A stretch of DNA of 50,100 nt from the IMG/VR virus record IMGVR_UViG_3300022912_000002; one strand, written 5' to 3'. Position 1 is the stretch's first letter. Each line of letters starts with the position of its first letter. Positions 1 to 49,973 of the stretch are shown in pieces. A model generated the notes under the pieces. It searched no databases, was not told where the DNA came from, and saw nothing but the letters and a program-made list of their open reading frames with translations. Source of the DNA: a virus. A program made the translations under genes and the position numbers.

Positions 1-127
1 TCGCGCACCAAGCCTTTAAGTAATGCCCACCACAAATTAATGTGATGGGCATAAAGGATTAGCACAATGGGTGCTACCAGTTAAACTCCTGCCTTTGTGC
101 AGGTATGGAATCCGTGCCGACCATCTG
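1..127. repeat. Terminal overlap copy 1, identical to 49974-50100. Marks a closed genome of about 49,973 bp.
   Basis: Read directly. TCGCGCACCAAGCCTTTAAGTAATGCCCACC... at position 1 recurs base-for-base from 49974 to the end of the window, exactly 127 nt. Confidence 0.95.
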
Positions 128-13132: not shown

Positions 13133-13165
13133 TTTACCCTATAACGCGAAGAAAAAGGAAAAAAG

Positions 13166-13387: not shown

Positions 13388-13393
13388 TATTAA

Positions 13394-19286: not shown

Positions 19287-19472
19287 ATGAGGGAGTGTGA
19301 TAATTGCGGTTCCCCAGGTGCAACTCAGTACGGAGCATTGGAGTTGTGCAATGATTGTCACATTGAAATGGTGGGGAATGAAGCTGAAGAATTGGCAGAA
19401 AAGGCGAAAAGACAAGAGGGTCGTAAAACGAATACTACAACAGTTGGCGTTAAAGGGAGTAATAACGTATGA
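19287..19472 (+). CDS. Small zinc-ribbon protein
   Basis: CDNC...CNDC (two CxxC pairs) followed by a basic tail. The ATG directly follows the upstream stop. Confidence 0.55.
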   Translation: MRECDNCGSPGATQYGALELCNDCHIEMVGNEAEELAEKAKRQEGRKTNTTTVGVKGSNNV

Positions 19473-20260
19473 CCGCAAAGCTCGCACTTATAATCCCCGA
19501 CCAACATATTCGGGAACACGACACGAAAGCCCTGAGCATAATTCTGACAGCGATTCGGGTACTGAAGCCTGATACAGTAATAAATATAGGTGATATTGGT
19601 GAAAACGAAGGTTCAAGTCATTGGAAGTGGAAACGTAGAGCAAAGCCCCCATTGGAATACATCATTCCCGATGTGGATGAGGATTTGCGCGTCACGAATC
19701 AATGGCTTGACCTCCTTGACGATGCCATGCGTGAAGCCAAAACGAAAAAGAAGGTACTTACTTGCGGTAACCATGACAAATGGCTTGATTACATGTGTGA
19801 AAGTTATCCAGTGTTACTCAAACAAGGTTATGGTGTAAGAGATGCGTATAAGCTCGATGCTAGAGGCTACGAATTTGTGGAATATGGCCACTATCACCCT
19901 CTTGGCGACTGGTTGTTTTATCATGGCGGCCACTATACAAACATGCACCACACTAAATCGCATCTCGAACGTGTTGGGCAAAACATCATGTACGCCCATC
20001 ACCACAACTATCGATACTGGTCTATCGCTAGAATGGAAGGATTCATTGAAGCACATTGTCTTGGGTTCCTGGGAGCCTTTGAAAAGGAATTCTTACAGGG
20101 AAACCTTACTGACTGGCAACACATGTTCGCTACGGTTGCCTACGATGATGAGATGCACGGAACTGTCCATATTTACAGAATCCAAGATGGACTATGTGAA
20201 ATCAATGGTAAGGTATATGATGGAACAAATGGAGAAGCGGAATGTCTAAATCAATTCTAA
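19469..20260 (+). CDS. Calcineurin-like metallophosphoesterase
   Basis: The ordered motifs IIPDQH (DxH), NIGDIGENEG (GD), CGNHDKW (GNHD), YHGGHY and YAHHH match the metallophosphatase signature. Confidence 0.8.
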   Translation: MTAKLALIIPDQHIREHDTKALSIILTAIRVLKPDTVINIGDIGENEGSSHWKWKRRAKPPLEYIIPDVDEDLRVTNQWLDLLDDAMREAKTKKKVLTCGNHDKWLDYMCESYPVLLKQGYGVRDAYKLDARGYEFVEYGHYHPLGDWLFYHGGHYTNMHHTKSHLERVGQNIMYAHHHNYRYWSIARMEGFIEAHCLGFLGAFEKEFLQGNLTDWQHMFATVAYDDEMHGTVHIYRIQDGLCEINGKVYDGTNGEAECLNQF

Positions 20261-23085
20261 ACATTAGAGAAATCATTGGGCAGTACACCACAAAAGGAAC
20301 AGACATGCCCGAGAACATGGCACATAGGCTGAAGAATCTTTTTGTGGACACTAAGGCTGGAATGGCTGAAGGAGCGCGTGATTACACCGATATTAGCATA
20401 GGTGGCACCGCAGGCACAACCTTCCAATCAAGTCTTGGTGGAAAGCCAGTCAAAGAAGCTGTATTCTTTTCCCCAAGCAAAGACTTTGAAATTAATGGCG
20501 AGCAGTACACCCGAATGTTGGTCATATTGGTGCATAGTGGCACTTACCTTTTAAAATTTTATGGAATCCCTGACTCTGGCGATTTCGACCTCGTTTATGA
20601 CCCAACAACAGATGTGAACTTGGGAACTGGTGCTGATACTGAAAATACTGAACTGGTGTCTACTGGTGATTCACTTCGCATTGTAACTGGTGATAGAGTT
20701 CGATGGTTCGGACATCTTCAAAAAAACATGCTTTATGTGGATGGAGATGCAACCCTGACAACAGTTGGTTGGTTCCTTGAAGATGCCATAGTTGATACTG
20801 ATGGGATTAGTATTGATGTCGCTGAAACTGATAGACCGCTTTATGATGATGATGATACTATTGACAGAATCTATACCTATGCAGTTTCCGTGGTTTATGA
20901 TTATACTCAGGATAGTTCCTACCTGACTTCAAGAGTGATCAAGACTCAGAACATGCCCAGGCTGACTATTGGAATCGATACTTCCAGAATTGCTAGACGA
21001 ATCACAGGTATCAAGTTGTGGCGTAAAGTTGGTGAAGAAGGCAATATTTACTCATCAATGGATTTTGAGTTATACAAAGATTACGGTGTATCATATGATA
21101 CAAATGACGACTACGACTATGTAGTTTTCCGCGCACTTCCCAAGAAGCTGAAGTGTTTGACTTCCCTTGATTTCTACTTTTCATGGACTTCCGATAAGTG
21201 GGAAGCCGAGGGGAATGATTCTCATATCAATAATGGCTCCATTACCTATGGCGACAATGAGGAACTACGCAGACATTACCGTTTCCCACAATGGTCTTAC
21301 GTTGTACCCCTTGACCCAACCAAGAACAATTTCAGTCCTCAGGAAGATAAGGAATACTTCCTCAGTGTAGATCCTGGCAACGAGGCAAGCTTTGAGGATT
21401 TTGATAATCGGGCTATCTATAAGCCTGATGTGAATACTGGCTATGAAACCAAACCCATGTGGAAGTTTAAACAACCTGAGCTTCAGTCCTCTTTTGAGTT
21501 TTCTGCTATTGCTTACAAGCTCTGGAAGATTGAAGTCCATGACGATTATTTTATTGCTACATTGGTCTATGGTCATTGTCTCGATGGTGGAGCTACCGCT
21601 ACAAAGGATATGATTCAATCCAACTATGCTCCATTCATGAATTTCCAAGCCCCTTATGATGGTCGATATCGTATCTACTCATTAAAAAATGGCATATATC
21701 TTGACTATGCTTCTTCACTTCGATTATACCCAAAAGAGCTTACGGCTGATGATGGAAGTGGTACATCCTCTATCGCTGAACATGCGATTTATTCAAATAA
21801 GGTCTTACCAACAACCCTTGATGGCAATCTGCTTCGGATAACTGGTGATGTTCGTTCTTCTGCGACTGGTTCAGATCCCCTAGTAAGCGCAAAGATAAGC
21901 TATGCAGATGGAACGCGGGTGGATGATGTGAGTGATTCCCTGAGACTTATTTTCAGCGATGATGACCTTCCGTTGTTCTCACCCAAGCCTTATTCATTGA
22001 TGGTTCCAGTCTACAATGATACACTTGGGCTAGTTGGTGGGGTAAATGAAAATTTAGACAATGTTGCAGGAGATACATCTATTGTTCAGGAAATTGAAAC
22101 ATTGGGTGGCATCGTTACTGAAGCTTCTGGCGCAATAGTCGACTTCCAAACTTCTCCTGCTGAAAATGTTATCAACATGGTCGTGGATGATCAATCAAAA
22201 GATGATGTTCACACCAACCGCTTTTACTCTGAGGAAGTTGGATTCGACCCTAAGAATCTTGTGGTAAGCTATAAGCACCCTGTACTCTTTGGGAATAGGC
22301 TGTTTGTGGTTGATGAATCTACCCTACGGTGGAGTGAATCTTTTAAATATGATTCCTTCCGACCTGAATCAGTTTATGAAGTAAGTTCAGAACCGACCAA
22401 GATTTTACCTCATCATGATGCTCTATTGCTCATTTACGAGAATAACATTGATGTATTAAATTACTCTGGTACCAAAGAAACATGGCGTACCTCTGATTCG
22501 TTGAACAAGCTTGGCACCACCCTGACAAACAGTATTCTCTCAACCCCAGCTGGTGTGTTCATGGTCACCCGATATGGCATCTTCATGATTAATAGTCCAG
22601 AGACAGCAGGAAAAATGAGCTACTACAAGCAGACTCGAATTGATAGAGCTATTGAGGGTGAAATTGACCTTGAATCTGCAACCCCAAATGACATCGTTGC
22701 CTATTGGGATTCAGAATGGGAACGCATTGTTTTGATAGATAATCGCACAGAAAAACATTGGGTGTTCAGTTTGAAAAAGGGATGGATGCCAATTGAGGGA
22801 AGTGCGTATAGCAGTTTTTCCCACATTATTCCAATCCATGATATGTTGAATTTGGGGCTGGCGCGGAAAGCATCGGCACCTATCATTTCTAAACTGCGTT
22901 ATGATGGTGAGAATCTTGGAGACTATGAATTTGAATCTGGATGGATAACCATGAAGGAACCTTCTGTTTTCAAAAAATTCAAAAAAGTTTATCTTATAGC
23001 GGAGATTCCATCGGCTACCGCAATCGCTGACCCTGGCCTTACTGATCCAGATGATGCACAACCTCCAAGACCGAGGGCGAACTAA
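20242..23085 (+). CDS. Large virion structural protein (947 aa; possibly tail tube/nozzle by position)
   Basis: Long ORF directly upstream of the internal-protein-like cluster, as gp12 precedes gp13-16 in T7-type order. No motif recognised. Confidence 0.45.
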   Translation: MSKSILNIREIIGQYTTKGTDMPENMAHRLKNLFVDTKAGMAEGARDYTDISIGGTAGTTFQSSLGGKPVKEAVFFSPSKDFEINGEQYTRMLVILVHSGTYLLKFYGIPDSGDFDLVYDPTTDVNLGTGADTENTELVSTGDSLRIVTGDRVRWFGHLQKNMLYVDGDATLTTVGWFLEDAIVDTDGISIDVAETDRPLYDDDDTIDRIYTYAVSVVYDYTQDSSYLTSRVIKTQNMPRLTIGIDTSRIARRITGIKLWRKVGEEGNIYSSMDFELYKDYGVSYDTNDDYDYVVFRALPKKLKCLTSLDFYFSWTSDKWEAEGNDSHINNGSITYGDNEELRRHYRFPQWSYVVPLDPTKNNFSPQEDKEYFLSVDPGNEASFEDFDNRAIYKPDVNTGYETKPMWKFKQPELQSSFEFSAIAYKLWKIEVHDDYFIATLVYGHCLDGGATATKDMIQSNYAPFMNFQAPYDGRYRIYSLKNGIYLDYASSLRLYPKELTADDGSGTSSIAEHAIYSNKVLPTTLDGNLLRITGDVRSSATGSDPLVSAKISYADGTRVDDVSDSLRLIFSDDDLPLFSPKPYSLMVPVYNDTLGLVGGVNENLDNVAGDTSIVQEIETLGGIVTEASGAIVDFQTSPAENVINMVVDDQSKDDVHTNRFYSEEVGFDPKNLVVSYKHPVLFGNRLFVVDESTLRWSESFKYDSFRPESVYEVSSEPTKILPHHDALLLIYENNIDVLNYSGTKETWRTSDSLNKLGTTLTNSILSTPAGVFMVTRYGIFMINSPETAGKMSYYKQTRIDRAIEGEIDLESATPNDIVAYWDSEWERIVLIDNRTEKHWVFSLKKGWMPIEGSAYSSFSHIIPIHDMLNLGLARKASAPIISKLRYDGENLGDYEFESGWITMKEPSVFKKFKKVYLIAEIPSATAIADPGLTDPDDAQPPRPRAN

Positions 23086-23334: not shown

Positions 23335-23982
23335 ATGAAAAACAGAATTGAAAATTTTCAAGAAGATTGGACAGGTGGAGCATACGCCCCAGGTGGACAA
23401 TACGAACAATCCGCAGACCCTAAAGCTGATGTAATGGCTTTGTTTGGTGGTGATATGAACAAATACAATGCTTGGTACAACAACCTACGCCCCGAAGATA
23501 GACCCAAGAATTGGGATGATGCTCTCATTGGTGCGCGTGGAAGCATGGGTGCTGGTGCCTTTAAAGGCGGTCAGGTTCGTACTGGTCAGCAGACTGGTGT
23601 TCAGCCCCTTCAAAATCCTCAGGCACAGCCAATTGTTCCACAAGGGCCACAGGCTATTGGGATGCAGAAACAAGGTTTCGGTGCCAAGATGGGTGGCATG
23701 TTGGGTCAGATGATGCAACGTGCTGACTATGCAGGCGCAGGCGTTCGTCAAAAACTTGGTCAGGTATTCGGTGGTGGACAACAACAGCAACAGGCTCCAT
23801 ACATCCCAAGTGGCCCTGCACCACAACCAGCGGCATATGAAGATGGTCAAATGGCACCAAGCGCATTTCCAAATCAAGCCCCTGCGCAAGTACCGCCACA
23901 AGCCCCTCAAGATAATTCTGCTTTATTAAGACAGCTTGCCAGTTGGATGCAATCTGGCGGTGCCCCTAATATTGGAGGTTAA
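23335..23982 (+). CDS. Gln/Gly/Pro-rich low-complexity protein (candidate internal/ejection protein)
   Basis: GGAGATTAGAG lies before the ATG. Composition includes QQTGVQPLQNPQAQPIVPQGPQ and GGGQQQQQAPYIPSGPAPQPAA. Confidence 0.55.
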   Translation: MKNRIENFQEDWTGGAYAPGGQYEQSADPKADVMALFGGDMNKYNAWYNNLRPEDRPKNWDDALIGARGSMGAGAFKGGQVRTGQQTGVQPLQNPQAQPIVPQGPQAIGMQKQGFGAKMGGMLGQMMQRADYAGAGVRQKLGQVFGGGQQQQQAPYIPSGPAPQPAAYEDGQMAPSAFPNQAPAQVPPQAPQDNSALLRQLASWMQSGGAPNIGG

Positions 23983-23984
23983 TC

Positions 23985-24566
23985 ATGGGTTGGAATTTTA
24001 AAGATGCAGGCGGTGGGGCAGCACAAGGCGCGTTGGCAGGCGGTTCGATGTTCGGGCCCGCAGGCGCGATTGGTGGTGGACTACTAGGACTCGCCATGGG
24101 AGGCATGCACAGTGGGCCACCTACGGCAGAGGAAATGGGAGTTAACCCCCTCGACATAAACGCTGAAGCTCAAGCATTGATGCCTAACCAATCTGAAACG
24201 AACAATCAGCGGAATGAATTCAATGCGGGTCTTGATGGTGAAATAGAGAAATATCGCTCTCAACTCATAGCGAGTGGAATGGATCCAACTCAGGCCGCGC
24301 AATTGGCTCAGAATAAATTCATGTCTCAGAGGAATCGGTTTGGTATAAGCCAACAGCAGGGTCAGGCAAATATGCACCGTGGGCTAATGGCTCAAATGCT
24401 TCCTGCAAAACTTCAAAGAGATGAAGATATTTTGAATATCAACAATAACCAAAAGTTCGCACCAAGCTTCAATCAATCTATGGCACCCATGACAGCGGGT
24501 TTCGGGTTGCAGGGAATCTTTGACAGAACGAATGGAACTGGTTTCTTTAAGCCAGAAGGAGAGTAA
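23985..24566 (+). CDS. Gly-rich hydrophobic N-terminus protein (candidate internal/ejection protein)
   Basis: Contains the glycine-zipper-like segment GGGAAQGALAGGSMFGPAGAIGGGLLGLAMGGM. Confidence 0.55.
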   Translation: MGWNFKDAGGGAAQGALAGGSMFGPAGAIGGGLLGLAMGGMHSGPPTAEEMGVNPLDINAEAQALMPNQSETNNQRNEFNAGLDGEIEKYRSQLIASGMDPTQAAQLAQNKFMSQRNRFGISQQQGQANMHRGLMAQMLPAKLQRDEDILNINNNQKFAPSFNQSMAPMTAGFGLQGIFDRTNGTGFFKPEGE

Positions 24567-24568
24567 TC

Positions 24569-25135
24569 GTGGCTATTAATGTTCCGAATAACGACCAAAT
24601 GTTAAGCCAGTTGTCAGCGGTTGTTGGTGGTGTACTTGCTAATAAAATGGCTACCGAACAAGCGACTGCCCAACGTGGTCATGAGTTTCAATTGGCGCAA
24701 CTCAACAATCAGAATCAAATGGCTATGATTACCAAAGATTATGAGATGCGTAAACAGCTAGGTGATGAACAGCGGAAAGCTATGCTTGAAGCCCTTCCTC
24801 AACAGTTACAAGCTTGGGGATTGAATATGCAAGATATGTTACCGAAAGAGGAAAAGCCTGCAAATTGGATGGAGCATTATGGTTCCCGTATCGCAGGTGG
24901 AGCCGCAATCGGTGGTGGTATTGGCTTGGCAGGTGCGGGTGTTGGGGCTATCCCTGGCGCACTTATTGGTGGAGCCGCAGGACTTATTGAAGCTGGTGGC
25001 GCACACCTCCTGAGTGGCATTGGCAAAGAGGACAAAGAAGCCAAGAAGAAATCTGAATTGGCACTACGTCAAATGCAGACAATCGCTGCTTTGAATCAGA
25101 TGATGGGTATGAACCAAATGGCACCAGGCTTATAG
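24569..25135 (+). CDS. Gly-rich hydrophobic segment protein (candidate internal/ejection protein)
   Basis: GTG start after GGAGAGTAATC. Contains IAGGAAIGGGIGLAGAGVGAIPGALIGGAAGLIEAGGAHLL. Confidence 0.55.
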   Translation: MAINVPNNDQMLSQLSAVVGGVLANKMATEQATAQRGHEFQLAQLNNQNQMAMITKDYEMRKQLGDEQRKAMLEALPQQLQAWGLNMQDMLPKEEKPANWMEHYGSRIAGGAAIGGGIGLAGAGVGAIPGALIGGAAGLIEAGGAHLLSGIGKEDKEAKKKSELALRQMQTIAALNQMMGMNQMAPGL

Positions 25136-25145
25136 GGGTAAAATC

Positions 25146-28100
25146 TTGAGCGAAAATCCTTATGTCGAGATAGCAGATGTAATAGAGCAAATGAAACCAC
25201 AGCTTTCACCTCATCAGGTGGGGGCTGTTCGTGATTATGAGAAGGCTCTATATGGTGAAGATGAATTTTTTCTGAGGGAAACAGGGCGACTACTTGGGCA
25301 GATACCTACGGGTTTTGCTGAAGGGATGTCAACCGTTAATCTCCAATTCATTGAACCGCGTACTGAAGCTGAGAAAATTGCTCGGTCATTAGGTTCCTTG
25401 CTTGGTTTCGTGGGATATATCCCCAATCCATCTGCCCTTGCTCTAAAGGTTGCTGGAAAGACCAGTAAAAAGGGTGCGTTAAAAATACTCGGGAAACAAT
25501 GGAACAAGCCTAATTCAGCAGGTCGATGGGCTGAAATGCAGGCTATGTCTCTGGATGATTTATACAAGACTGCCATTGAAGGTGTTCCCACTAATCTCTC
25601 TAAAGTAAAATCAGTGCCGATGTATCTCACTGATATGATCACTAAATCCTCGGTTGGTAAAAAAGCAGGGAAAGCATCCCTAGACTTGCTTAACAAGTCG
25701 AAGTATATCAACTCAAACAAATTCCTGGCACCGCGTATTGGTGATTTTGGGGAAGGAATGATGCACTTGGGTCTGGCTTCTGCCATTTCCGCAGGTGGTA
25801 TCAATCCTTTCCAATGGAAGGAACGTGTTGATTCTGTACTCCCTGCTTTCGCTCATGGTGCTGCCTTTGGTGGTGCCTTTCGTGGTATTGGGCAACTTGG
25901 TAGCGTTCTAAACTGGACTACCGCTAGTGGTTCTCCAAAGACTGCCGCGAAGTTGTTGCAAGCAGTTGCAGGCTCTATGGTTCAAGGTATTCCTTCAACC
26001 ATGCGAAACGACTCTACTGCTGAACAGATTTATGAATACTTACTTGGTAGTTGGTTTGGATTTCATGAAGTTCCCTATGTTAAAAGAGTAGCAGGGAAAA
26101 AGGAACATGAGATTCAGATTGAAGGTCAGAAGTCACAGGGCGTTCATACCAGTTGGCATTATCGCAATAATCCTGAAGCCTTTAAGCGGAATTTTGGTTG
26201 GGATAAGATGCCAAAAGAAGCACAGGACATTGTTGACCTATGGCTAAAAGACCAGTATAACGCAAATAGTCCTGAGCTTTATGACATCATGACTCAGGCA
26301 AATGAAGAAATCGCAGTTAGACGCGAAGCTGGTGAAGATGTTCCCTTTATTATTCCCAATCGTGTTGGTGTCGTAAAAGCTCCTGATGCACATGGTCTTG
26401 AATTTCAGGTTCCAATTTATCATCGTGATGCTCTCAGCGAAGGTAAGCCAATTAAAAATGGTGCCATGTTTGACCGTCAAGGTGGTCGAATCATTATTGA
26501 CCCTGAGTATTTTGAGCGTAATGACCCTATCTGGAGAAAAGAGGGATTCGGTCCTGACATCGATTCAACATTTCTTCCCACAAAAGCTGAACGCCAACGG
26601 TTCATGATACTTCATGAGTTCTATCATAAATTTTACAAGTCTGAAGATTTAGCTAATGTGGTCGCTGCCTTTGAAGTAAAGCGGGAACTTGGTAAAGAAG
26701 CTGAAATTCCTGCTAATTGGATTCTTCCTCAAAGACTCTCTCCGCAGGAAAAGATTGAGTTTCAGCGATACGTTGATAAGCTTACGATGGAAACCTATAC
26801 TAAAGGTGAAGTCATTCCCGATGGAACCTACGTCAATATGCACCTCAGGACTGAAATGGGTCAGATGTATGGGCATCGTGGGTATGTGGTTGAAAAAGCA
26901 GAGGAAGCTAATGTTTTCCGCATGCTGATTGAACGACCCGCGGAAAATGGAAAGCCTGGGGAATATGTCCTCGATGATCATACTACCTTAGTCGGCCAAG
27001 ACCTTATCACTGGAATATGGCGTGATAGACACATTTCTGAGTTAGACCGCGAAGCATCCCTTCCTACTGGACATGATAATGAAGGGAATTTCAATTGGGA
27101 GGGTGGTAAGCCCACCAAAACGCCAGAAACACCGCCTAAAGCTCCTGTAAAGCCAAAAGCGACCATTGAACCGCCTAAGCCTAAAAAGGCTCCTGAGAAG
27201 CCTAAACCGCCTAAGGCAAAGAAGGTCAAAAAGCTCACCAAGAAACAAGCCAATCAGGTTGCAAATGTCGAGAAGGAAATCAAACTTCTTGAACGGATTG
27301 AGCTAGAGCAAACCGAGAAGATGAAGAATGGCGAGAAGCCAGATGATGCAGTTGGCATGGATTTCCTTCGGAGACAAGAGCAGTTAGGTGACTTCCTTGC
27401 TCGTAATGATGAAGTATTTTCCAGGATTGTAGAGAAACAGAACAATGACCTAGTTGAATATGGTAAATACCTACAAGAAAAGTATGGCAAGGAATATGAA
27501 AATTCTGACCTATCTCCCAAAGACCTAGCCCGACTCAAAGAGTTTAAAACTTTCCAAAAACGATTGGAAATGTTGATGGCAGTAGGGCAATCCCGATTGA
27601 TTAATAAGGGAAAACCTACCCCTGAGACTAAGGAATTACCTGAGGCCAAGATTAACAAAGAGGGTGAGCTTGAAATCACTATTGAAGGTGGTGAGAAGGA
27701 AGCTCAAGAGTTAATCAAAAAGGGTAAGCTCGAAGTCAAAGAGATTCAGAACGACGAGTATGTTCATCATTCAGGTGGTGCCAAAGGTGCTGATACTGGT
27801 TGGGATATGGCAGGGCGTAAATATGGCGTGAAGTCAAAACATTATCGGGAACCTGGGGCAAAGAGCGTTGACAGTCCTACCCTTAAAGGCGAGGGTGTTA
27901 AACCAGTTGAGATGTCAAAAGCTGAGTTTAAAGAAGGTACTGAGAAAGCTACTAAGGCAGCGCAACGTCTTGGTCGCCCAATGTCTGCCAAGTTCGCACA
28001 TTATCAGATTCGGAATTGGAACCAAGTCAAACATGCTGATGCGGTATTCGCAGTCGGTAGAATCCTCGATGTGGGTGAAGCAGGCGCAAAGGGTTTCCCC

Positions 28101-31100
28101 AATAAAGCCAAAAAGCAAACGGTGGATGGTGGAACTGGATATGCGGTTGAAATGGCTATTGGTGAGGGTAAGCCAGTATTCGTCTTTGACCAAGCTAGGA
28201 AGAAGTGGCATACTTGGGATGGAAAAGAATTTGTTCAAATCGATACTCCTACCCTGACACCCAATTTTGCAGGGGTTGGAACTCGGGAACTTACCAAAGG
28301 TGGCATGAAAGCCATTGAAGCAGTATTTGAGAAAACCTTTGGCAAGAAAACTGAACCTGAACCCGAAGTAGAAGTAGATCCCTGGGATGCGCTTGATGAG
28401 AATGGCAAGATTGAACCTAGTGCCGATGAACTAAATGTCCTCGATGGATGGGAGAATAAAGCACCAGTTGGTGAAGATGGTCGCCCACTCACATCTGATG
28501 TTCCTGAGCGTTCTGCAGAATACTCCGAACGAATTGAATCATCCTACACACCCCACTTGAAAGAAGTCGGTGTGAAGAATGGTATCAAAGATGACATGAA
28601 CGTGTCTAAGTGGAAATCTGAACTCCGTGAAAAACTCGGGAACTACGATGATGCGAATTTAGTCATTGAAGAATTTCAGCACCAGTATTCTCAGATTGAC
28701 ATGGGTGGCAAAGCCAACAAAGATGGTTGGACTAAAGGCCAGTTAGAGTTCATGAAGTTGGTCGAGGAAGCACACCCAGGACTATCAAAACAAGCTTTGA
28801 TGGAATACCATAATCAGGTTGAGATTGATACTATTTCCTTGAAAGGTAATGGCGCTGAGTTAGGTCGAGCATACATCACAAACGCTAAGATTCATAGGCT
28901 GTTTGACCATAAACGGTTTGTGGCACTTGAACCTAAGTTGATTGATAAGATTTATGAGGGTGCTGGACTCTACAATGAAGCGGGTCTATACACTATTCGT
29001 GAACTGCTTGCGAAAAATGAGCCTGCTGAAGCATACTTTGAGCGCATGGGTGTTGATTTTGGACACATCTATGACATGAAGCATCCAGTCGGAAAATATG
29101 CCCGACTCTTAATCAAATATGAACCACACATGATCACAGAGCTTAGAGCCATTGAAGCTTCTGAAAAAGATGGTCGTGCATCTGATAGATACCTGAACCA
29201 AAGAGATATTTTTGAAGCTCAGATTCATCGGGAAATCTTTGAAGCCGCGCAAGGCAAACAGTACACCCAATGGGCTACTGAAGGAACAATTCCTTACGCC
29301 ATGTATCAGGCTAATTACAATGAGTGGAGAGAGCAAAGGGCTGAACAGAACAAGCCTAACTCAAAGGTTGCCTATGAACGATTCCTCAGAGATAAAGGCA
29401 TCAAATCACGCGCTGATAAAATGATGAAGTATTTTGGTCAGGCCAATACCAATGCCTATTACTCTCCGAATAAGCGGAAGATGAATTATGTCGTAATCAA
29501 TGACGGAACATGGATAAAGAAATTAGCCAAGAATTCTGTGTATCAAAAGTGGTTGAAGTCTGATACTAAAAGTCGTCAAGATGGTGCTATCTACATTTCC
29601 AAAGCACAACTTGAAAGGCAGAATGAAAGGTGGAATCTTCCTGACGATACCGTGAATATGAAAACGGTTATCAATCATCGCTCTGGTGATGATGTATTTA
29701 TTGGAAAGGGTGAGACTTTTTACCATGAGGGTCTAAACGAGTTCATGGAAGCGAATGGGTTGGATTTTGTAATCTTTGACTCAGGTGCTAAAATCCGTGC
29801 CGACAAAACAGGGGTGAACTGGCCTATCATGGAAAACATGACCTTTGCTGATATGGCAAAAGGTCGTAAGGGTGCTGATGGGAAACGTAACTTTAAATAT
29901 CCTGAGATTGCAGAAAACATGCGTTCAGATATTGGTGAAGATGCCGTTGGGTTTATCAAGATGGACAAGACCAAAGGCAAGGGTCGCGTAACAGTCACAC
30001 CTCAGGTTTTGGATTCGTTCATGAATCATGATGTTGCCAATGAATATATCGAAGCCTATGTGAAGGATGAAGTCAAAGCAGTCGAGCAGATTCAGAAGTC
30101 GATTACTCGCCCAAAAGCTTTTGTCAATGCGCTTATCCATTATGGACTTGGTGCTAAAATCAAACGTGATGCGAAGGGCAAGCGTTTCGTTGAGGGGAAC
30201 TTCTCTGAATCGAATGAAGCCTATGTTCGGAAATTAATGGATGGAGCAAATCCATTCTCCGCACCTTTGATTGAGCAGACAAACAATACCTTTAGACAAG
30301 TTTTAGGCCACATCGCCAAGCCAAGAACTGCATCGGGGGAATGGGTGACACTCGTTCCTGAAAGTGGTTTTGCATGGAAAAAAGGCGGTAAGGCTGAAGA
30401 ACATGAGCTGAAAGAGCGTACCTTCAGGGACTACTCTGGTGAAAGAGTTGTAGTCCCTGGGGAGGCTCGCGCTCCTTATAGCTTTTCAAAGAAACTAGAG
30501 AAGCCTGAAAATATCACGCTGTTTGATCATGAGACAGGGAAATATGTAAAATACGCTGACCATTTTCCAGCCACACCAGTTGGTGGGAATGGCAAGATGA
30601 GATATGGTGATGCGTGGGAAGCCACCAGAAGCCAATTCTTCACTCGTAAAAATGCCGAGGGCAAAGATGAACAGGTTCGGAAATATGACCTAATCATGAA
30701 TTTCCAGACCTCTCCAAAATCTAAGCCTGAAGATATGCTTGTAATGGCGGTTGATGTTTTCCTTCCCAAGACTCGCGGAAATGCACTTGAAGCCAATACT
30801 CTCGATGCGTCTGTTGCTGCTGAACGTGATTGGGATGGTGATGCAGGGGCAGGATTCATTCACATGCCTGAAGGTATGATGCGTGAATATACGAAGGACA
30901 TACTTGGCCCCGATGGTGAGTTTCGTGTTGGTATCACCGATGTTGGAAAAGCGACGAATCCGCAGGTCGACCTTTTGGATCCTCAGTGGTATCGTGAAAT
31001 GAATGACAAGATTCGCACCGTCAATAAGAAGATTGGTGAAGTTGTAAATAGGCGGTCTGGATTCGATGCCATTGTCAAAGGCAACATGAGTATCAATTGG

Positions 31101-34100
31101 CTTGGAAATAGATTAACTGCAATCAAAGCTGACAGTGAAGCATATTCAGGCTACATGTCTGAATTTGCTGGTGAAGTCCAGGTGACGGTTGATGGTCCGA
31201 AAGCTGACCTTCTTTCCCGACCTGACCTACTCAGAGGAAATTACTCAATGCTTGCTCGCGGTAGAGCCTTTCTTGAGTTCTCGCGAAAAGACCCGATTCA
31301 CAAGATTCTCGCAAAGGTAGCCAGTTACTTTAAAGAGCAGGCTGGCCGAATGGTGAACAGTAAGAATTTCGATGGTGAAGCAAAGAACGCATCACTAAAA
31401 GCGGTTCACCAAGCTGTGCATGAACATCGAGTGCTTGAAGCAGCTGAGAACAACGAGCTATTCACATTGGGCGGGGTTCCCATCAAGACCGATCAGGTGT
31501 ATGGCGTTGTCTGGTGGAAGCAGGCAGTTCCTTCCCTGAATAAAGTGACTCAGGCTATTCATAATATCACATCTGAATTAACTCTCTCTGAAGTAACTCG
31601 CGAGGGAACATTCCCTGAGAAGAAATACAACAAAAACAAACGTGTCGCAATTCAAGCTCTCAAGAAACGTGTGAAGGATTCTGAGGATGGTCGAGCCTAT
31701 GGCGTGAATGAGCAGGATATGGCCTATTGGGAAATGTATGAAGCCAGCCTTAGTCATGGTGCTATGCAACTCCGTTGGGGGCCTGCAAGTGAAGCCAAGA
31801 AATATGACATGCCTACTGCCATTCGTGACATGCTGATTGCTGAAGATAACCCAAGTAAGAAGTTCCTGCTTGAAAAGCATGACCACAATAACCGAACTGA
31901 ATATTCTGATACCATTGTATTACCATTCTTGAATGTGAAAGGCAACCATTCAACAAGTCCGAAACAACGATTGCTGAAGAAGCTAATCGCTGCCTATCCT
32001 GACCCATTCAAACTGCATGACCCGACTCCTATCAATTTTCATGTTGGTGGAACTGGTGGTGGTATGCACACGACTCGAAGGGCTGACCAAATCAGAACTT
32101 CCATGTTGGCATCCAGAAATAATGAAGCTCTCTATCGTATGATTGCCGATAAACACCCTGAGATATTTGAGGGAATCGACTACAAATCCAGTAAAGGTTG
32201 GACTATCCCTAAACGCATCCTTGAGTATTGGGGTGAGAAGAATAAGGCCAAAGCGAAACAAATTGCTGAGATGTGGGCTTTGCGTTCAATGCGTGATAGC
32301 TTGCCCTTCCAACGGCCTAGAGATTTTGCATCAGTCGAAGAATTAAAGATGAATGAGAATAAGGTTCAGACCAAATTTCGCTTTTTCATCGAGACTAATG
32401 GGTTAGAGCCTATACTCTTTCCCAAAGGTATTCCTGAGAATCTAGGGGAGTACCTGGATAAGTACCGCATCGAAAGTCAAGATGGTGGGAAGCAGTTTGA
32501 TTATACCTCTCTCGATGCGCGTATCCAGTCCTTGTGGGATAAAGGCACCAGAGACATCCGAACATTTTTCATGCCTGACCCAATGGTTTCCAAAACTGGC
32601 AGTTTGCATGGCTCGTTTACTGAAGCCGTTAGTATCAACCGAAGTTTGTGGGACCAATTCTCGAAGGACAAAGCTCACCAAAGTTGGATTAGACACTACG
32701 ATGATGTGGTATCTGACCAAGATGGGATGGGGCATAGATATACGGAAGCATCGAGGAAAAGGGCTGACCTACTCCTAAGAGGGGTTGAACCTAATGAGCT
32801 TTTCTTCCCTTATGGTGGCCGTGAAGAAGCACTTGGGGTAATTAAGGATATGAGTAACGGTACAATCCCAATGACTCCTGGGCAACGTGCTGACTTCCAG
32901 AGACTATTTGCTGAATATCCTGAAATGGCTTCTCAGTTTCGCAGGGTTCTACTTGGCCTTATTAATAAACCTCACCTCGATAACCACAAAGAGATTGACT
33001 TTGTTATCAAAAAATTGAGCGCATTGGGTTCTGGCGATCCTAGACTTGGTGTGATTCAAAGACAACTCATGCCAAATAGAGTTCAACGTGACTTCCTGAA
33101 GTTTGATGTCATGTGGCCTGAGTCTGAAGTGGTTGGAACTGGTATGCACGCCTTGAAGCCAGTTAGTGGATTCGGTAAGGTTTTTCAACATCAGCTGGAA
33201 TCACATGCTGAGATTCAGAAGGAAGAACAAAAAGGGCAAATCTTACTAAACTCTATTTTCTATCTGGAAAAGCTACCCGAGTGGGTTTCCAAAGAGTATG
33301 GTCTTGAGAATGGATCTATGTTCACCAAAGAGGAATCTACCTACGTCGAACAATGGAAAGAAATGTTTAAAGCTGATGTTGGTGCTGTAAAGGACTTGTT
33401 TGACATCGCGGCTCACATCTACCCAGTTGAGTATGGCGGTAAAGAGCATTTCAAAGGAATGTCCTCTGAGCATAAAGCTGAAATCATGGATAGATACAGA
33501 AATGCTAAAGCTCAGTTGGAATCTCTTGACCATGATGCAGGTCGAGCAAAACGACATTATGTGAAATATATCATGAGACAGCAGAACAAGCTTGCTGACT
33601 TCATCCATAACACTTATTGGGAACATTCTTCAGGCAAGAAATACTCTATCCATTGGAATAATCAGGAAGTGAAAAGGTATCACTTACCCAAGCAGATTAA
33701 AGAATTGAACAAAGAAATACTCCGACTGCAAAAGGAATCTTCAAAGCTGACTGGTTCCGATGCCAAAGAGATTCAGAATATTATTGAAGCGCGGACCGAG
33801 ACGATGCACATGTTGGAAAACCTAGCCAAAAAGCTAGACAACTTGAATCGTATGAAGCTTGTTGCAAAGGGTGATAAGTTCATTACTCCTGACCGAATCG
33901 CTGGCTACCTCCCTCACATTTGGGATTCACCTGAGTTGATGGTAAAAGCCTATGAGGAATCATATGTCAGAACCATTAATGCAACTAAAGACCCCAAGCT
34001 GAAGAAAGCACTTACAATTGACATGCAGAAGAAGCTTGAAGATTTAGGCCGAACGATGGTTGAACCACCTGGAAAAGAGTTCTTTGATGCGAAGGCTGAT

Positions 34101-35663
34101 CAATTCGATTGGTTCTCCAAAACAAGAAATCCTGCCGAGCGTGAGCGTAACATGCAGTTAGGCGGGTGGTCTACTGAGCTTCCTATGGTCTGGATGAAGT
34201 ATTGGAAAGATACTGTGAAACAGGCTGTTGGGCTTAAATATAGTGTTGAAAGTCGCAGAATGATTGACGATTTCAGTATGCGAATGGAGAAGAAATTCGG
34301 TAAGGAATCTGAAGGTCAAGTAAAGCGAATTGCTGAATTTATGAATGTATATTTGCGTGACTCAATGGGCTACATACCTGAGTTCAATAAGCGACCCAAG
34401 CTACTGAAATATATGCTTGCCAAAGCATCAGGTAAAAAGCCTGACGATAATCCCGATGCTTATGAAGAATTCTTTTCCGATTCTACTGTAATTGATTTTT
34501 GGAATAAACGCTCTAAGTACAAGTTGCCTGCATGGAAAATGCAACAACTAGCTAACCTTGAAGCCAAGTACGAATATCTGACCTTGCTGACACATCCTAA
34601 ATATCCACTTGGAAATATTCTTGGCGGTACAACCAACATGCTAGTCTATGGTGGAATCAAACGATTCAAGCAAGCCAATCAACTGTTGGGTCAAAAAGAC
34701 GGTGAATATAAGGCGATGATGAAATCTCAGGGAGTGTTGCCCGAGTTAATGGCCTATGAGTTCGATGTTGCTGCTGGCCCTTACAAAGTGGAAATAGGCG
34801 GTGCCTATGAAGCCGTGAAAGAAGTGGCATTATCCAACAAAACTAGAGCGCAGAAAAGGGAAGCTTTACTTGAAATAAATCGCAAGTATAATATTGGCAG
34901 GAAAGCTATGGATATTGCAGGGAAATTCGGTACTCCTGCTGAAACATGGCTAAGAGAACGTGCATTTACTGTTGGGTATATCATGGCAGAAGAAATGGGC
35001 TTGTCAGGTGATGCACAGATTAAGTTTTCCAGGGATGTTGTAACTGGTACACAGTATCTTTACCACAATGGGGTAAGACCTGAATTTGCTAGAACTGGAT
35101 TCGGTAAAATTGTTACTCGATTTATGATGTACTTCTTTTCCACCATGAGCTTTCAAAAGCAGATTCAACTTGATGCACAGAAATTGAACCTAACTCCTGA
35201 GTCTGAAGAACACAAACGCATGCAAAGATGGACTTCGGTTGCATCGGTCATGATGGCCTTAGCATCGATCTACCCATATTCAATATTTGATTCAGCTTTG
35301 CCACCTCACCTGGATGCCATGAAGGATGCGAGTGAAATGATGTTCGGTGATGATGATGATAGGAAGCGTGCTTTCTTCGGTACCTATGGTTTGAACGTAA
35401 TTACCGCACCAATGCCCTCAAGATTAATTCTAAGGCCATTAGTCACAATCATGAATCAAGACTATCAGCGGTACTTAAACAGCGAGATATACAGTTGGTT
35501 CCCCTTTGGCAGATTTGCTAAGAGTTCCATGCGAATGTTACGCAATCCTATCTATGGATTAGAGACTTTCGCAGGTGTTCCACAGATTTCCGCAAGTCGG
35601 GATGTGAAGCATATTCAGAAGGGAAAAGAAAAAGGGACTGACAGTTATCAATCCCCAGGTTAG
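25146..35663 (+). CDS. Giant (3505 aa) virion/ejection-type multidomain protein with a candidate two-barrel RNA polymerase core
   Basis: Uninterrupted 10.5-kb ORF with a TTG start. HEFYH at aa 490-494. Pro/Lys linker (nt about 27108-27250). SLOG-like HHSGGAKGADTGW...DGGTGYAVEMAIGEGKPVFVFD (nt about 27756-28240). QDGAIYIS (nt 29577-29600). SPKSKPEDMLVMAVDV ... DWDGD ... FIHMP (nt 30711-30870). Hydrophobic segments at both ends. Confidence 0.85.
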   Translation: MSENPYVEIADVIEQMKPQLSPHQVGAVRDYEKALYGEDEFFLRETGRLLGQIPTGFAEGMSTVNLQFIEPRTEAEKIARSLGSLLGFVGYIPNPSALALKVAGKTSKKGALKILGKQWNKPNSAGRWAEMQAMSLDDLYKTAIEGVPTNLSKVKSVPMYLTDMITKSSVGKKAGKASLDLLNKSKYINSNKFLAPRIGDFGEGMMHLGLASAISAGGINPFQWKERVDSVLPAFAHGAAFGGAFRGIGQLGSVLNWTTASGSPKTAAKLLQAVAGSMVQGIPSTMRNDSTAEQIYEYLLGSWFGFHEVPYVKRVAGKKEHEIQIEGQKSQGVHTSWHYRNNPEAFKRNFGWDKMPKEAQDIVDLWLKDQYNANSPELYDIMTQANEEIAVRREAGEDVPFIIPNRVGVVKAPDAHGLEFQVPIYHRDALSEGKPIKNGAMFDRQGGRIIIDPEYFERNDPIWRKEGFGPDIDSTFLPTKAERQRFMILHEFYHKFYKSEDLANVVAAFEVKRELGKEAEIPANWILPQRLSPQEKIEFQRYVDKLTMETYTKGEVIPDGTYVNMHLRTEMGQMYGHRGYVVEKAEEANVFRMLIERPAENGKPGEYVLDDHTTLVGQDLITGIWRDRHISELDREASLPTGHDNEGNFNWEGGKPTKTPETPPKAPVKPKATIEPPKPKKAPEKPKPPKAKKVKKLTKKQANQVANVEKEIKLLERIELEQTEKMKNGEKPDDAVGMDFLRRQEQLGDFLARNDEVFSRIVEKQNNDLVEYGKYLQEKYGKEYENSDLSPKDLARLKEFKTFQKRLEMLMAVGQSRLINKGKPTPETKELPEAKINKEGELEITIEGGEKEAQELIKKGKLEVKEIQNDEYVHHSGGAKGADTGWDMAGRKYGVKSKHYREPGAKSVDSPTLKGEGVKPVEMSKAEFKEGTEKATKAAQRLGRPMSAKFAHYQIRNWNQVKHADAVFAVGRILDVGEAGAKGFPNKAKKQTVDGGTGYAVEMAIGEGKPVFVFDQARKKWHTWDGKEFVQIDTPTLTPNFAGVGTRELTKGGMKAIEAVFEKTFGKKTEPEPEVEVDPWDALDENGKIEPSADELNVLDGWENKAPVGEDGRPLTSDVPERSAEYSERIESSYTPHLKEVGVKNGIKDDMNVSKWKSELREKLGNYDDANLVIEEFQHQYSQIDMGGKANKDGWTKGQLEFMKLVEEAHPGLSKQALMEYHNQVEIDTISLKGNGAELGRAYITNAKIHRLFDHKRFVALEPKLIDKIYEGAGLYNEAGLYTIRELLAKNEPAEAYFERMGVDFGHIYDMKHPVGKYARLLIKYEPHMITELRAIEASEKDGRASDRYLNQRDIFEAQIHREIFEAAQGKQYTQWATEGTIPYAMYQANYNEWREQRAEQNKPNSKVAYERFLRDKGIKSRADKMMKYFGQANTNAYYSPNKRKMNYVVINDGTWIKKLAKNSVYQKWLKSDTKSRQDGAIYISKAQLERQNERWNLPDDTVNMKTVINHRSGDDVFIGKGETFYHEGLNEFMEANGLDFVIFDSGAKIRADKTGVNWPIMENMTFADMAKGRKGADGKRNFKYPEIAENMRSDIGEDAVGFIKMDKTKGKGRVTVTPQVLDSFMNHDVANEYIEAYVKDEVKAVEQIQKSITRPKAFVNALIHYGLGAKIKRDAKGKRFVEGNFSESNEAYVRKLMDGANPFSAPLIEQTNNTFRQVLGHIAKPRTASGEWVTLVPESGFAWKKGGKAEEHELKERTFRDYSGERVVVPGEARAPYSFSKKLEKPENITLFDHETGKYVKYADHFPATPVGGNGKMRYGDAWEATRSQFFTRKNAEGKDEQVRKYDLIMNFQTSPKSKPEDMLVMAVDVFLPKTRGNALEANTLDASVAAERDWDGDAGAGFIHMPEGMMREYTKDILGPDGEFRVGITDVGKATNPQVDLLDPQWYREMNDKIRTVNKKIGEVVNRRSGFDAIVKGNMSINWLGNRLTAIKADSEAYSGYMSEFAGEVQVTVDGPKADLLSRPDLLRGNYSMLARGRAFLEFSRKDPIHKILAKVASYFKEQAGRMVNSKNFDGEAKNASLKAVHQAVHEHRVLEAAENNELFTLGGVPIKTDQVYGVVWWKQAVPSLNKVTQAIHNITSELTLSEVTREGTFPEKKYNKNKRVAIQALKKRVKDSEDGRAYGVNEQDMAYWEMYEASLSHGAMQLRWGPASEAKKYDMPTAIRDMLIAEDNPSKKFLLEKHDHNNRTEYSDTIVLPFLNVKGNHSTSPKQRLLKKLIAAYPDPFKLHDPTPINFHVGGTGGGMHTTRRADQIRTSMLASRNNEALYRMIADKHPEIFEGIDYKSSKGWTIPKRILEYWGEKNKAKAKQIAEMWALRSMRDSLPFQRPRDFASVEELKMNENKVQTKFRFFIETNGLEPILFPKGIPENLGEYLDKYRIESQDGGKQFDYTSLDARIQSLWDKGTRDIRTFFMPDPMVSKTGSLHGSFTEAVSINRSLWDQFSKDKAHQSWIRHYDDVVSDQDGMGHRYTEASRKRADLLLRGVEPNELFFPYGGREEALGVIKDMSNGTIPMTPGQRADFQRLFAEYPEMASQFRRVLLGLINKPHLDNHKEIDFVIKKLSALGSGDPRLGVIQRQLMPNRVQRDFLKFDVMWPESEVVGTGMHALKPVSGFGKVFQHQLESHAEIQKEEQKGQILLNSIFYLEKLPEWVSKEYGLENGSMFTKEESTYVEQWKEMFKADVGAVKDLFDIAAHIYPVEYGGKEHFKGMSSEHKAEIMDRYRNAKAQLESLDHDAGRAKRHYVKYIMRQQNKLADFIHNTYWEHSSGKKYSIHWNNQEVKRYHLPKQIKELNKEILRLQKESSKLTGSDAKEIQNIIEARTETMHMLENLAKKLDNLNRMKLVAKGDKFITPDRIAGYLPHIWDSPELMVKAYEESYVRTINATKDPKLKKALTIDMQKKLEDLGRTMVEPPGKEFFDAKADQFDWFSKTRNPAERERNMQLGGWSTELPMVWMKYWKDTVKQAVGLKYSVESRRMIDDFSMRMEKKFGKESEGQVKRIAEFMNVYLRDSMGYIPEFNKRPKLLKYMLAKASGKKPDDNPDAYEEFFSDSTVIDFWNKRSKYKLPAWKMQQLANLEAKYEYLTLLTHPKYPLGNILGGTTNMLVYGGIKRFKQANQLLGQKDGEYKAMMKSQGVLPELMAYEFDVAAGPYKVEIGGAYEAVKEVALSNKTRAQKREALLEINRKYNIGRKAMDIAGKFGTPAETWLRERAFTVGYIMAEEMGLSGDAQIKFSRDVVTGTQYLYHNGVRPEFARTGFGKIVTRFMMYFFSTMSFQKQIQLDAQKLNLTPESEEHKRMQRWTSVASVMMALASIYPYSIFDSALPPHLDAMKDASEMMFGDDDDRKRAFFGTYGLNVITAPMPSRLILRPLVTIMNQDYQRYLNSEIYSWFPFGRFAKSSMRMLRNPIYGLETFAGVPQISASRDVKHIQKGKEKGTDSYQSPG

Positions 35664-49884: not shown

Positions 49885-49973
49885 AGCTGTCTCCTTTAGC
49901 TGTTGGCGAGAGTTGCAAAAAAACCTGAGGGTGGGCAGGCCACCAAGCGCGAGATGCGTTAGCATCTATGTAC

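Follow-up and report, generated by a model that had tools for sequence, protein, structure and literature searches.

The window analysed here, a 50,100-nucleotide stretch of viral DNA, contains a giant open reading frame (25146..35663, + strand; 3505 aa with TTG as start codon) that closes the + strand structural block. We find that aa ~1450-2030 of its product very probably constitute a single-chain two-barrel RNA polymerase (RNAP), in fold and by homology. Since this fold is predicted in a late-gene giant protein, the phage probably enters the cell with a transcription enzyme of its own. The explanation as a whole, i.e., a two-barrel RNAP that is packaged in the virion, injected, and active in early transcription, is in our judgment a likely one, and the role as injected early-transcription enzyme, argued from analogy, is reasonably likely.

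The giant protein combines a predicted polymerase core with family-wide terminal modules

The start of the giant gene is placed by other gene callers at Met16 (ATG at 25191), which gives a protein of 3490 aa. Its terminal position in the structural block is kept in the related contigs L003 and L004. BLASTP mapping shows that an N-terminal module (aa ~20-320; 25203..26105, +) is common to almost all homologous giant proteins, and we infer for it a role in packaging or ejection. Further along the chain lies the HExxH motif HEFYH (aa 490-494; 26613..26627, +), which has a Glu downstream and is kept in the relatives P0002-P0006. A Pfam scan gave no match for this region; by analogy with the metallopeptidase (MPTase) of the N4 vRNAP (PMC5512222) and with crAss gp65 (bioRxiv 10.1101/2020.03.07.982082), it is a candidate zincin-like metallopeptidase. 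A DprA/SLOG-like domain follows (aa ~865-1080; 27738..28385, +; phrog_768 match over aa 865-1024, E 1e-5), a domain that recurs in P0055 and in two gp66-like giant proteins, P0044 and P0056 (36-42% identity by BLASTP).

The modelled polymerase core (aa 1452-2030; 29499..31235, +), predicted with AF2 and compared by Foldseek with PDB and BFVD, comprises two barrels, a helical connector between them, and long helices thereafter. The chain ends in a C-terminal module (aa ~2500-3505; 32643..35660, +), of which the last ~400-500 aa are common to almost all giant homologues; Pfam and PHROG scans gave no match for this module, and a Kyte-Doolittle scan of it revealed no strongly hydrophobic segments. 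Altogether, 57 protein clusters have the N- or C-terminal modules in common or, in three cases, the SLOG-like domain only, and another ~58 clusters (at 50% identity) have the polymerase core in common. The family occurs in small, uncultured, partly marine phage genomes.

Putative catalytic motifs of the two barrels are conserved among distant homologues

The initial annotation had read a two-barrel signature from three motifs, and translation confirms that all of them lie in frame at the spacings it quoted. QDGAIYIS starts at aa 1478, the first residue on translating 29577-30870; SPKSKPED opens the segment SPKSKPEDMLVMAVDV at aa 1856-1871 (nt 30711-30758); and DWDGD (aa 1895-1899; 30828..30842, +), the predicted Mg2+-binding triad of D1895, D1897, and D1899, is followed by AGAGFIHMP. 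The initial annotation likened QDGAIYIS to a DGxGxIS motif of the RDR family. D.DGD occurs once across the six reading frames of the window. It also arises in ~4.7% of residue shuffles of the giant ORF, so the motif by itself is weak evidence.

Its conservation is more telling. In an alignment of 19 sequences, with homologues 11-38% identical to the query, the residues D1479, G1480, K1506, K1521, K1549, P1857, D1895, D1897, D1899, and D2016 are invariant; DWDGD thus does not lie in a non-conserved loop. Among 116 related segments from giant metagenomic proteins, the column of P1857 holds Pro in all 116, that of K1549 Lys in 113 of 116, that of K1521 Lys in 104 of 107, and that of K1506 Lys in 104 of 113, with Asp in 110 of 112 at D2016 and in 94 of 110 at D1479. 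The catalytic Asp residues are present in 116/116 by construction, because the three Asp served to pick the segments. Some 50 distant giant homologues carry the pattern vRvPxDSxSGxxxLxFxGFTGxxGxGxxxHxxxxxxLGGADxDGD, located ~430 aa past the first-barrel match. Position 4 of the catalytic motif is Gly in the giant protein and in its close relatives as well.

One residue departs from the expected pattern: the Arg of the RxP motif, near-universal elsewhere, is Thr (T1855) in the giant protein; P0002 and P0003 have Ser there. This substitution, together with the crystallisation of gp66 with its active site in an inactive conformation (bioRxiv 10.1101/2020.03.07.982082), would suit a degenerate polymerase fold that is non-catalytic and retained for a structural or ejection role. 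We consider such degeneration improbable: the Arg is retained in the relatives P0004, P0005, and P0058; K1858 and K1860, which adjoin the missing Arg, are invariant; and invariance of the three catalytic Asp, the first-barrel Asp, and three Lys at 11-38% identity is hard to account for without catalysis.

Structure predictions match two-barrel RNAPs

The AF2 model of aa 1452-2030 reached a pLDDT of 71.2 and a pTM of 0.62, with the catalytic loop at only ~58-62 pLDDT. Searching PDB with this model by Foldseek returned 12 matches at E < 1e-3, all of them QDE-1, gp66, or RDR2 (E 4e-8 to 6e-4, probability 1.00). QDE-1 was the best (E 4e-8), and gp66 (6vr4) matched at E 2.1e-7 over 551 aligned columns; TM-scores were low (0.30-0.37) and rmsd values were 10-16 A. 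The next matches were largest, beta-prime-type subunits of multisubunit RNAPs, both cellular (Rpo1/Rpb1/beta-prime) and from jumbo phages (AR9 and PhiKZ nvRNAP subunits), so that two-barrel enzymes alone were matched in PDB. In BFVD, the matches were crAss-like phage proteins, "putative RNA polymerase" entries, LEF-9, and P23-45 (E 0.13). A first AF2 model, built from a 5-sequence alignment, was set aside: its pLDDT was 50, and Foldseek gave no significant match with it (QDE-1 at E 2.5-3.9). With QDE-1 and gp66 among the best matches of the predicted barrel and DWDGD invariant, the two-barrel reading of the initial annotation is supported, and the polymerase is predicted to share a structural clade with crAss-like gp66 and eukaryotic QDE-1/RDR.

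These results also bear on the simplest alternative, namely that the motif arose by chance in an unrelated protein without a polymerase fold. The shuffling frequency and the lack of any library HMM match speak for it, but the motif is conserved and the structure matches almost exclusively two-barrel RNAPs and same-fold giant phage proteins. A chance motif is already contradicted by this conservation and by the PDB and BFVD structure searches, and we give it hardly any credence.

The predicted two-barrel polymerase can be followed along the chain. The first, beta-like barrel (DPBB1/DPBB-B; aa ~1478-1556; 29577..29813, +) is delimited by invariant columns and predicted strands, and contains QDGAIYIS with D1479, K1506, K1521 (in FIGKGE), and K1549 (in DSGAKIR). 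Its strands are predicted at pLDDT 74-86, and the Foldseek alignments, which span 458-590 columns, cover it; by sequence, the first barrel alone was not significantly similar to gp66 (hhalign, P 0.1). In two-barrel enzymes, the beta-like barrel contributes one catalytic Asp and Lys/Arg residues that hold the RNA 3' end and the NTP, exemplified by D709, K743, and K767 of QDE-1 and by K979 and K987 of Rpb2 (PMC9508822). We infer that the invariant D1479 stands at the place of the fourth catalytic Asp of two-barrel polymerases, D709 in QDE-1 (PMC9508822).

The connector between the barrels (aa ~1557-1757; 29814..30416, +) is confidently helical in its C-terminal half (pLDDT 80-89 at model residues 181-280) and of low confidence over its first ~75 residues, from aa ~1557; the connector of gp66 and QDE-1 measures ~140 residues (bioRxiv 10.1101/2020.03.07.982082). 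The second, catalytic barrel (beta-prime-like, DPBB2/DPBB-A; aa ~1758-1905; 30417..30860, +), placed by hhalign to the gp66 profile, includes Q-T-S-P-K-S-K-P-E-D (nt 30705-30734). Past it, the AF2 model has two long helical segments (aa 1946-1978 and aa 1998-2023). In two-barrel RNAPs, the bridge helix and the trigger loop come after the catalytic barrel. The polymerase region probably extends to aa ~2400, with aa 2030-2400 not confidently modelled by AF2.

Sequence profiles link the core to gp66 at most moderately and to YonO not at all

Scanning the entire giant protein with Pfam and PHROG yielded only the DprA-like match and none to a polymerase, and no RdRP match appeared in the Pfam scan at E up to 1. 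A sequence-profile search of PDB gave spurious matches only, e.g., a U1 snRNP protein aligned on SPKQKPED; an alignment of this type is probably the reason for the "snRNP-like" name that JGI gives to fragments. Megablast and tblastn searches with the polymerase region, and with the relative P0037, found nothing among deposited phages.

Using query-subfamily profiles from which the gp66-like P0044 and P0056 were left out, hhalign against the gp66-family profile gave P 5e-5 to 6e-4 and probabilities of 28-67%, with an alignment that ends on DxDxD in register and puts DWDGD on D1361-D1365 of gp66 (1361-DFDID-1365). A higher probability, 91.6%, was discarded as inflated because P0044 and P0056 had been part of that query profile. 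The profile of distant homologues (P0006-P0057, excluding the query subfamily) scored 0.7% against gp66 (P 0.083), and six family profiles compared with YonO gave P 0.1-0.58, i.e., no link. Of the phage precedents named initially, gp66 has a profile link that is only moderate (P about 1e-4), and YonO has no sequence link; the Pfam, PHROG, and PDB sequence searches are blank.

Genome context is consistent with an injected enzyme of a short-tailed phage

Positions 1..127 (no strand assigned) repeat 49974-50100 exactly, an assembly overlap that makes the window a closed circular genome of 49,973 bp; there are independent contigs with 50,114 nt, which is 49,973 + 141. No close deposited relative of this genome was found. 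Its portal protein is of P22 type, and its capsid and adaptor proteins are of SU10 type. The capsid protein has four matches in deposited phages, all non-crass and at most 25% identical, and the TerL matches listed are likewise all from non-crass phages (at most 26% identity). The nearest capsid-protein relatives include a siphovirus-named phage, vB_VspS. From its size, the lack of crass affinity in TerL and capsid, and its SU10/P22-type head genes, the phage is not a crassvirus.

Among the ORFs of 100 aa or more in the complete genome, none was recognised as a further RNAP or as a sigma factor, so the earlier statement to this effect held. The podovirus position that had been ascribed to the giant gene is consistent with the P22-type portal, the SU10-type adaptor and capsid, and the placement of the gene at the end of the structural block. 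An 11-mer enriched in intergenic regions (7 matches versus 0.75 expected) was rejected, being without extended conservation or consistent orientation; these regions yielded no promoter-like motif in common. Early promoters would be expected in the non-coding stretches 503-937 and 49072-49677.

Two further alternatives concern delivery. In the first, the protein would, like its counterpart in Thermus phage P23-45, be a fusion of the tape-measure type, setting tail length and bringing the polymerase through a long tail. The P23-45 precedent (PMC10770324) and the siphovirus name of the capsid relative favor this. We nevertheless regard it as very improbable, given that the portal, adaptor, and capsid types indicate a short-tailed virion, that tail tube, sheath, and chaperone genes were not detected in the genome, that the giant gene comes after the tail-fibre genes rather than before distal tail genes, and that the polymerase is central in the chain, not N-terminal.

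In the second, the enzyme would be an active two-barrel polymerase that is produced in the course of infection and not carried in the virion, like YonO or P23-45 gp64, or that makes primers or other RNAs. Packaging is argued here from gene position and analogy, the genome showed no gene for a DNA polymerase, and QDE-1-type enzymes accept ssDNA and RNA templates (PMC9508822), all of which would accommodate this possibility. On the other side, the gene lies last in the structural block, its product includes modules common to a family of giant late proteins, the phage has its own primase-helicase, and a chain of 3505 aa in which HExxH and SLOG-like elements accompany the polymerase fits the "polyvalent" pattern of injected proteins (PMC5512222). 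We consider a non-injected polymerase unlikely.

The preferred reading, an injected two-barrel RNAP, suggests the following mechanism. The giant protein would be a late product that podovirus-type virions carry in their capsid. Its ejection along with the DNA would use the N- and C-terminal modules found across the family and may follow processing by the HExxH domain of the same chain. In the cell, the beta-like barrel with D1479, K1506, K1521, and K1549 would face the beta-prime-like barrel, whose loop D1895-W-D-G-D1899 would bind the catalytic Mg2+ ions, and the enzyme would transcribe the first phage genes without the host RNAP, as the N4 vRNAP, phi14:2 gp66, and P23-45 gp96 do.

Implications

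It is possible, though at present doubtful, that the giant proteins define a large group of uncultured aquatic phages with short tails and genomes of ~40-50 kb, partly known from Tara Oceans marine metagenomes, and that each of these phages injects a self-sufficient Gly-type (D[W/Y]DGD) two-barrel RNAP, structurally as close to QDE-1/RDR as to gp66 of crassviruses. If true, the phage ancestor of RNAi polymerases would have a better living model in this enzyme than in gp66, and the enzyme would represent a third independent way, after N4 and crAss, to package a transcription enzyme in a podovirus head. Its canonical-Gly active site can be compared with the unusual site of gp66, and, for the origin of RNAi polymerases in phages, it supplies one more data point. 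For phages seen repeatedly in metagenomes, the prediction is early transcription without host RNAP. Standard HMM libraries miss the polymerase of the giant protein, and its motifs make annotation of such genomes possible.

We found no description of this giant-protein family in the literature consulted; a prior mention among the alignments of "23 RNAP families" (PMC10770324) is possible. Virion-carried two-barrel RNAPs were previously known from crassviruses and one Thermus siphovirus. The initial description of the protein as a new lineage or architecture is fair, with the qualification that two-barrel virion RNAPs are not unprecedented, because gp66 and the polymerase fused to the P23-45 tape measure protein (TMP) are known.

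Comparison with known systems

The principal comparator, gp66, is the virion RNAP of the crAss-like Cellulophaga phage phi14:2 (PDB 6VR4; GenBank Phi14:2_gp077; bioRxiv 10.1101/2020.03.07.982082). Like gp66, the giant protein is predicted to hold a single-chain two-barrel RNAP within a giant late/structural protein, with the barrels in the order beta-like to beta-prime-like and a long connector between them. A zincin-like element lies beside the polymerase in both, as the neighboring gene gp65 in phi14:2 and as the fused HExxH motif here, and both genomes have a metallophosphoesterase gene in the structural block. The two differ in motif position 4, which is Gly here and Ile/Val in all crAss-like phages (DFD(I/V)D; bioRxiv 10.1101/2020.03.07.982082), in genome size (50 kb versus ~100 kb), and in the 3505-aa length, family-specific N- and C-terminal modules, and Thr in place of the RxP Arg of the giant protein; their profile similarity is marginal.

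SPbeta YonO and P23-45 gp96 are likewise phage single-chain two-barrel RNAPs, the P23-45 match being weak in BFVD. YonO is an 839-aa non-virion enzyme. In P23-45 gp96, the polymerase is N-terminal in the tape measure protein of a Thermus siphovirus (PMC10770324).

By inference, the layout also resembles that of N4 gp50 (Schitoviridae), with a ~3500-aa podovirus protein, a polymerase in mid-chain, and an HExxH region in the same chain. N4 gp50 is ejected with the DNA and starts transcription, and its chain includes a metallopeptidase-like HExxH region (PMC5512222, PMC13434306). The polymerase of gp50 is, however, a T7-like right-hand enzyme of unrelated fold, and no T7-like polymerase domain appears among the Pfam, PHROG, and Foldseek matches of the giant protein.

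QDE-1/RDR enzymes (PDB 2J7N, 7Y7Q, 7RQS) differ in that the giant protein is viral, embeds its polymerase in a virion-type chain, and resembles them in structure only, the Pfam RdRP match being absent. As the best structural match, they have in common with it D(Y/W)DGD with Gly and probably a first-barrel Asp with basic residues, which in QDE-1 hold the product and the NTP (PMC9508822).

Conserved motifs and homologues of the giant protein

The ORF at 25146-35663 (+) encodes a 3505-aa giant protein from a TTG start, or 3490 aa from Met16, the alternative start of other gene callers. When we translated 29577-30870, we recovered the three motifs on which the initial annotation had based its proposal of a two-barrel RNA polymerase (RNAP), each at its reported position: QDGAIYIS at aa 1478 in the putative first (beta-like) barrel, and SPKSKPEDMLVMAVDV at aa 1856 and DWDGD at aa 1895, followed by AGAGFIHMP, for the catalytic, beta-prime-like second barrel. 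D.DGD occurs once across the six frames of the window. Since ~4.7% of residue shuffles of the giant ORF contain this motif, it is weak proof alone.

Homologues form 57 clusters in the protein collection, all unnamed and 2.1-6.1 kaa long, part of them from Tara Oceans marine samples. The N-terminal ~300 aa and C-terminal ~400-500 aa of the query recur in nearly all of these clusters, and four (P0002-P0005) additionally share its middle. In the alignment of these four with the query, invariant first-barrel residues include the DG of QDGAIYIS, K1506, F1518, K1521, and G1522; Q1854, S1856, P1857, K1858, K1860, D1863, E1893, D1895, D1897, G1898, D1899, and A1900 are also invariant. The invariance of D1895, D1897, G1898, and D1899 contradicts the possibility, raised at the outset, that DWDGD lies in a non-conserved loop. 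Approximately 50 remoter members match the query profile in the first barrel and carry, ~430 aa further, vRvPxDSxSGxxxLxFxGFTGxxGxGxxxHxxxxxxLGGADxD(G/I/A/S)D, the classical beta-prime barrel signature (RxPxxH...NADFDGD). In addition, we searched 1.84 billion cluster representatives exhaustively with a profile and retrieved 63 proteins, mostly giant, with the common motif R.P(R/S)(T/N)(R/K)P(N/S)D...GF...GN...N..D......E(G/A)D(Y/F)D.D, of which Q-T-S-P-K-S-K-P-E-D...E-R-D-W-D-G-D in the query is one variant.

Across 116 aligned segments, chosen using the three catalytic Asp residues, conservation (query numbering) was 94/110 for D1479, 104/113 for K1506, 104/107 for K1521, 113/116 for K1549, 116/116 for P1857, and 110/112 for D2016. 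The Arg of RxP at position 1855 (30708-30710), present in 110 of the 116 segments, is Thr in the query, Ser in its two closest relatives, and Arg in other relatives; the neighboring K1858 and K1860 do not vary within the subfamily. This Thr is the sole worrying deviation in the predicted active site.

JGI fragments of the giant protein (P0118-P0120) carry the annotation "snRNP-like protein". This public name is probably an artifact, because a PDB profile search likewise matches U1 snRNP, spuriously, on the SPKQKPED stretch.

Profile and structure comparisons

As a reference for gp66, the virion RNAP of the crAss-like Cellulophaga phage phi14:2, we used GenBank Phi14:2_gp077 (2180 aa, 1361-DFDID-1365) and 23 homologues. 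The hhalign comparison of the 116-sequence profile with this family gave 91.6% probability (E 8e-7) over both barrels, with P0044 and P0056 included, two giant proteins of gp66-like type (YRIPxQ...GSDFDIDK) whose only common part with the query is a SLOG-like domain. Once these two were removed, profiles containing the query's subfamily gave 28-67% probability (P 5e-5 to 6e-4), and the alignment end always had the DxDxD motifs in register. Distant homologues alone gave no hhalign signal against gp66 (0.7%, P 0.083). Taken by itself, the first barrel was not significant (P 0.1); its best local alignment placed QDGAIYIS opposite gp66 TDAQAWITP. Of the relatives proposed initially, gp66 had only a marginal profile link, and YonO had none.

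Built on the five-sequence alignment, the model was poor (pLDDT 50) and matched no fold significantly. A trimmed-segment alignment of 19 sequences yielded a model of aa 1452-2030 with pLDDT 71.2 and pTM 0.62, reaching pLDDT 75-91 in the two beta-rich domains and in the C-terminal half of the connector, and about 60 in the catalytic loop. In the Foldseek comparison that the initial annotation had advised, this model had 12 PDB matches with E < 1e-3, each at probability 1.00 and each a single-chain two-barrel RNAP, namely the eukaryotic RNAi polymerases QDE-1 (2J7N, E 4e-8, and further entries) and Arabidopsis RDR2, and gp66 (6VR4, E 2.1e-7, 551 columns). The following ~25 matches were archaeal, Pol II, and bacterial RNAP largest subunits and the AR9 and PhiKZ non-virion RNAPs. 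TM-scores against PDB were modest (0.30-0.37), as expected for a multidomain and partly uncertain model. Against BFVD, the top matches were unnamed UniProt viral proteins (E 3.8e-19, TM 0.53); the best matches also included crAss-like phage proteins (one a "Putative RNA polymerase"), the protein of phi14:2, jumbo-phage and giant-virus RNAP subunits, LEF-9, and, weakly, P23-45. As modelled, the region belongs to the two-barrel superfamily and is predicted to be closest to the gp66/QDE-1 structural clade.

Genome and gene setting

The first 127 nt (1-127) and last 127 nt (49974-50100) are 100% identical, and MEGAHIT assemblies of this virus from other samples independently gave contigs of 50,114 nt (49,973 + 141, the k141 overlap), so the window represents a circularly closed 49,973-bp genome. 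On the + strand lie a large terminase (3223-4827, PHROG match), a P22-type portal (4962-7142; PF16510, E 1e-51), an SU10-type major capsid protein (8154-9437; PF17236, E 9e-20), two SU10-type adaptor proteins (9521-10500, PF24175), tail-fibre proteins (12257-18688, PHROG match), a metallophosphoesterase (19469-20260, PHROG match), a 947-aa protein without database match (20242-23085), and three small proteins (23335-25135), only the third with DUF6861; the giant gene closes this structural block. TerL and capsid protein are at most 26% and 25% identical, respectively, to those of deposited phages, and neither shows crassvirus affinity among the matches listed. The types of neck and head protein suggest a virion with a short tail, which makes the proposed podovirus internal-protein position of the giant gene reasonable, albeit unproven.

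Convergent on the - strand are ParB-like, RusA, Gam-like, primase-helicase, Sak4, and ArdC-like anti-restriction genes, the first five being the replication/recombination set. A few small ORFs precede the ArdC-N gene (47315-48292, -; weak MPTase-PolyVal match) near the far end of the block. No RNAP, sigma factor, or DNA polymerase matched among ORFs of at least 100 aa, in agreement with the initial view that the genome has no other RNAP or sigma gene.

We also observed several repeats. The 1764-aa tail-fibre gene (13394-18688) contains internal direct repeats (a 228-nt tandem at 17486-17941 and a 71-nt unit x4), and its first ~40 nt are shared with the preceding 291-aa gene (12257-13132), which points to a pair of fibre proteins that have their N-terminal anchor in common. 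Two copies of a 35-nt direct repeat, 80% identical, lie at 49342-49376, within largely non-coding 49072-49677, and at 49899-49933, within a small called ORF (49678-49965); we saw no obvious conserved hairpin.

Other segments of the giant protein

HEFYH (HExxH; 26613-26627, aa 490-494) and a downstream Glu are conserved in P0002-P0006; the segment has no Pfam match and may be a zincin-like metallopeptidase. A low-complexity linker (27063-27725, aa ~640-860; 40 K, 33 E, and 18 P among 230 residues) separates the N-terminal part from a DprA/SLOG-like domain (27738-28385, aa ~865-1080; phrog_768, E 1e-5). The latter is 36-42% identical to domains of P0044, P0055, and P0056, giant proteins otherwise unrelated, and looks like an accessory domain that moves among ejected giant proteins.

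Predicted mechanism and comparison with known polymerases

Two-barrel polymerases such as QDE-1 coordinate two cations with three second-barrel Asp and one first-barrel Asp, and their first-barrel lysines grip the 3' end of the product and the phosphates of the NTP (PMC9508822). The query matches this set, order included (D1479, K1506, K1521, and K1549; D1895, D1897, and D1899), with all seven residues invariant in homologues (19-sequence alignment), from which we predict a working, canonical Gly-type active site. The giant protein would be packaged in the virion and then ejected, because its gene ends the structural block, synteny is kept in relatives, the genome lacks any other polymerase, and N4 gp50, phi14:2 gp66, and P23-45 gp96 are analogous (PMC13434306, PMC10770324). 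We found no candidate promoters in the intergenic regions of the window.

In the literature covered, which excluded the published "23 RNAP families" alignments, we found no description of the giant-protein family. HMM comparisons place the query outside the RDR, YonO, and N4-type families, and it also falls outside the gp66 family. The initial claim of a new lineage or architecture is fair, but with virion two-barrel RNAPs established by now, the find is less surprising than claimed. We nevertheless consider this polymerase a solid, useful discovery.

By analogy, the query is predicted to work like the crassvirus virion RNAP. It differs from the gp66 family in that its profile similarity is only marginal, its phage is not a crassvirus, and motif position 4 is Gly rather than the Ile/Val that imposes an inactive conformation in the gp66 crystal (bioRxiv 10.1101/2020.03.07.982082). 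The HExxH motif has parallels in N4 vRNAP, which carries a fused metallopeptidase (PMC5512222), and in the zincin protein encoded next to gp66. Finally, the structural block contains a metallophosphoesterase gene here and in phi14:2 (gp086), which may be coincidental or a common trait of phages that eject two-barrel RNAPs.
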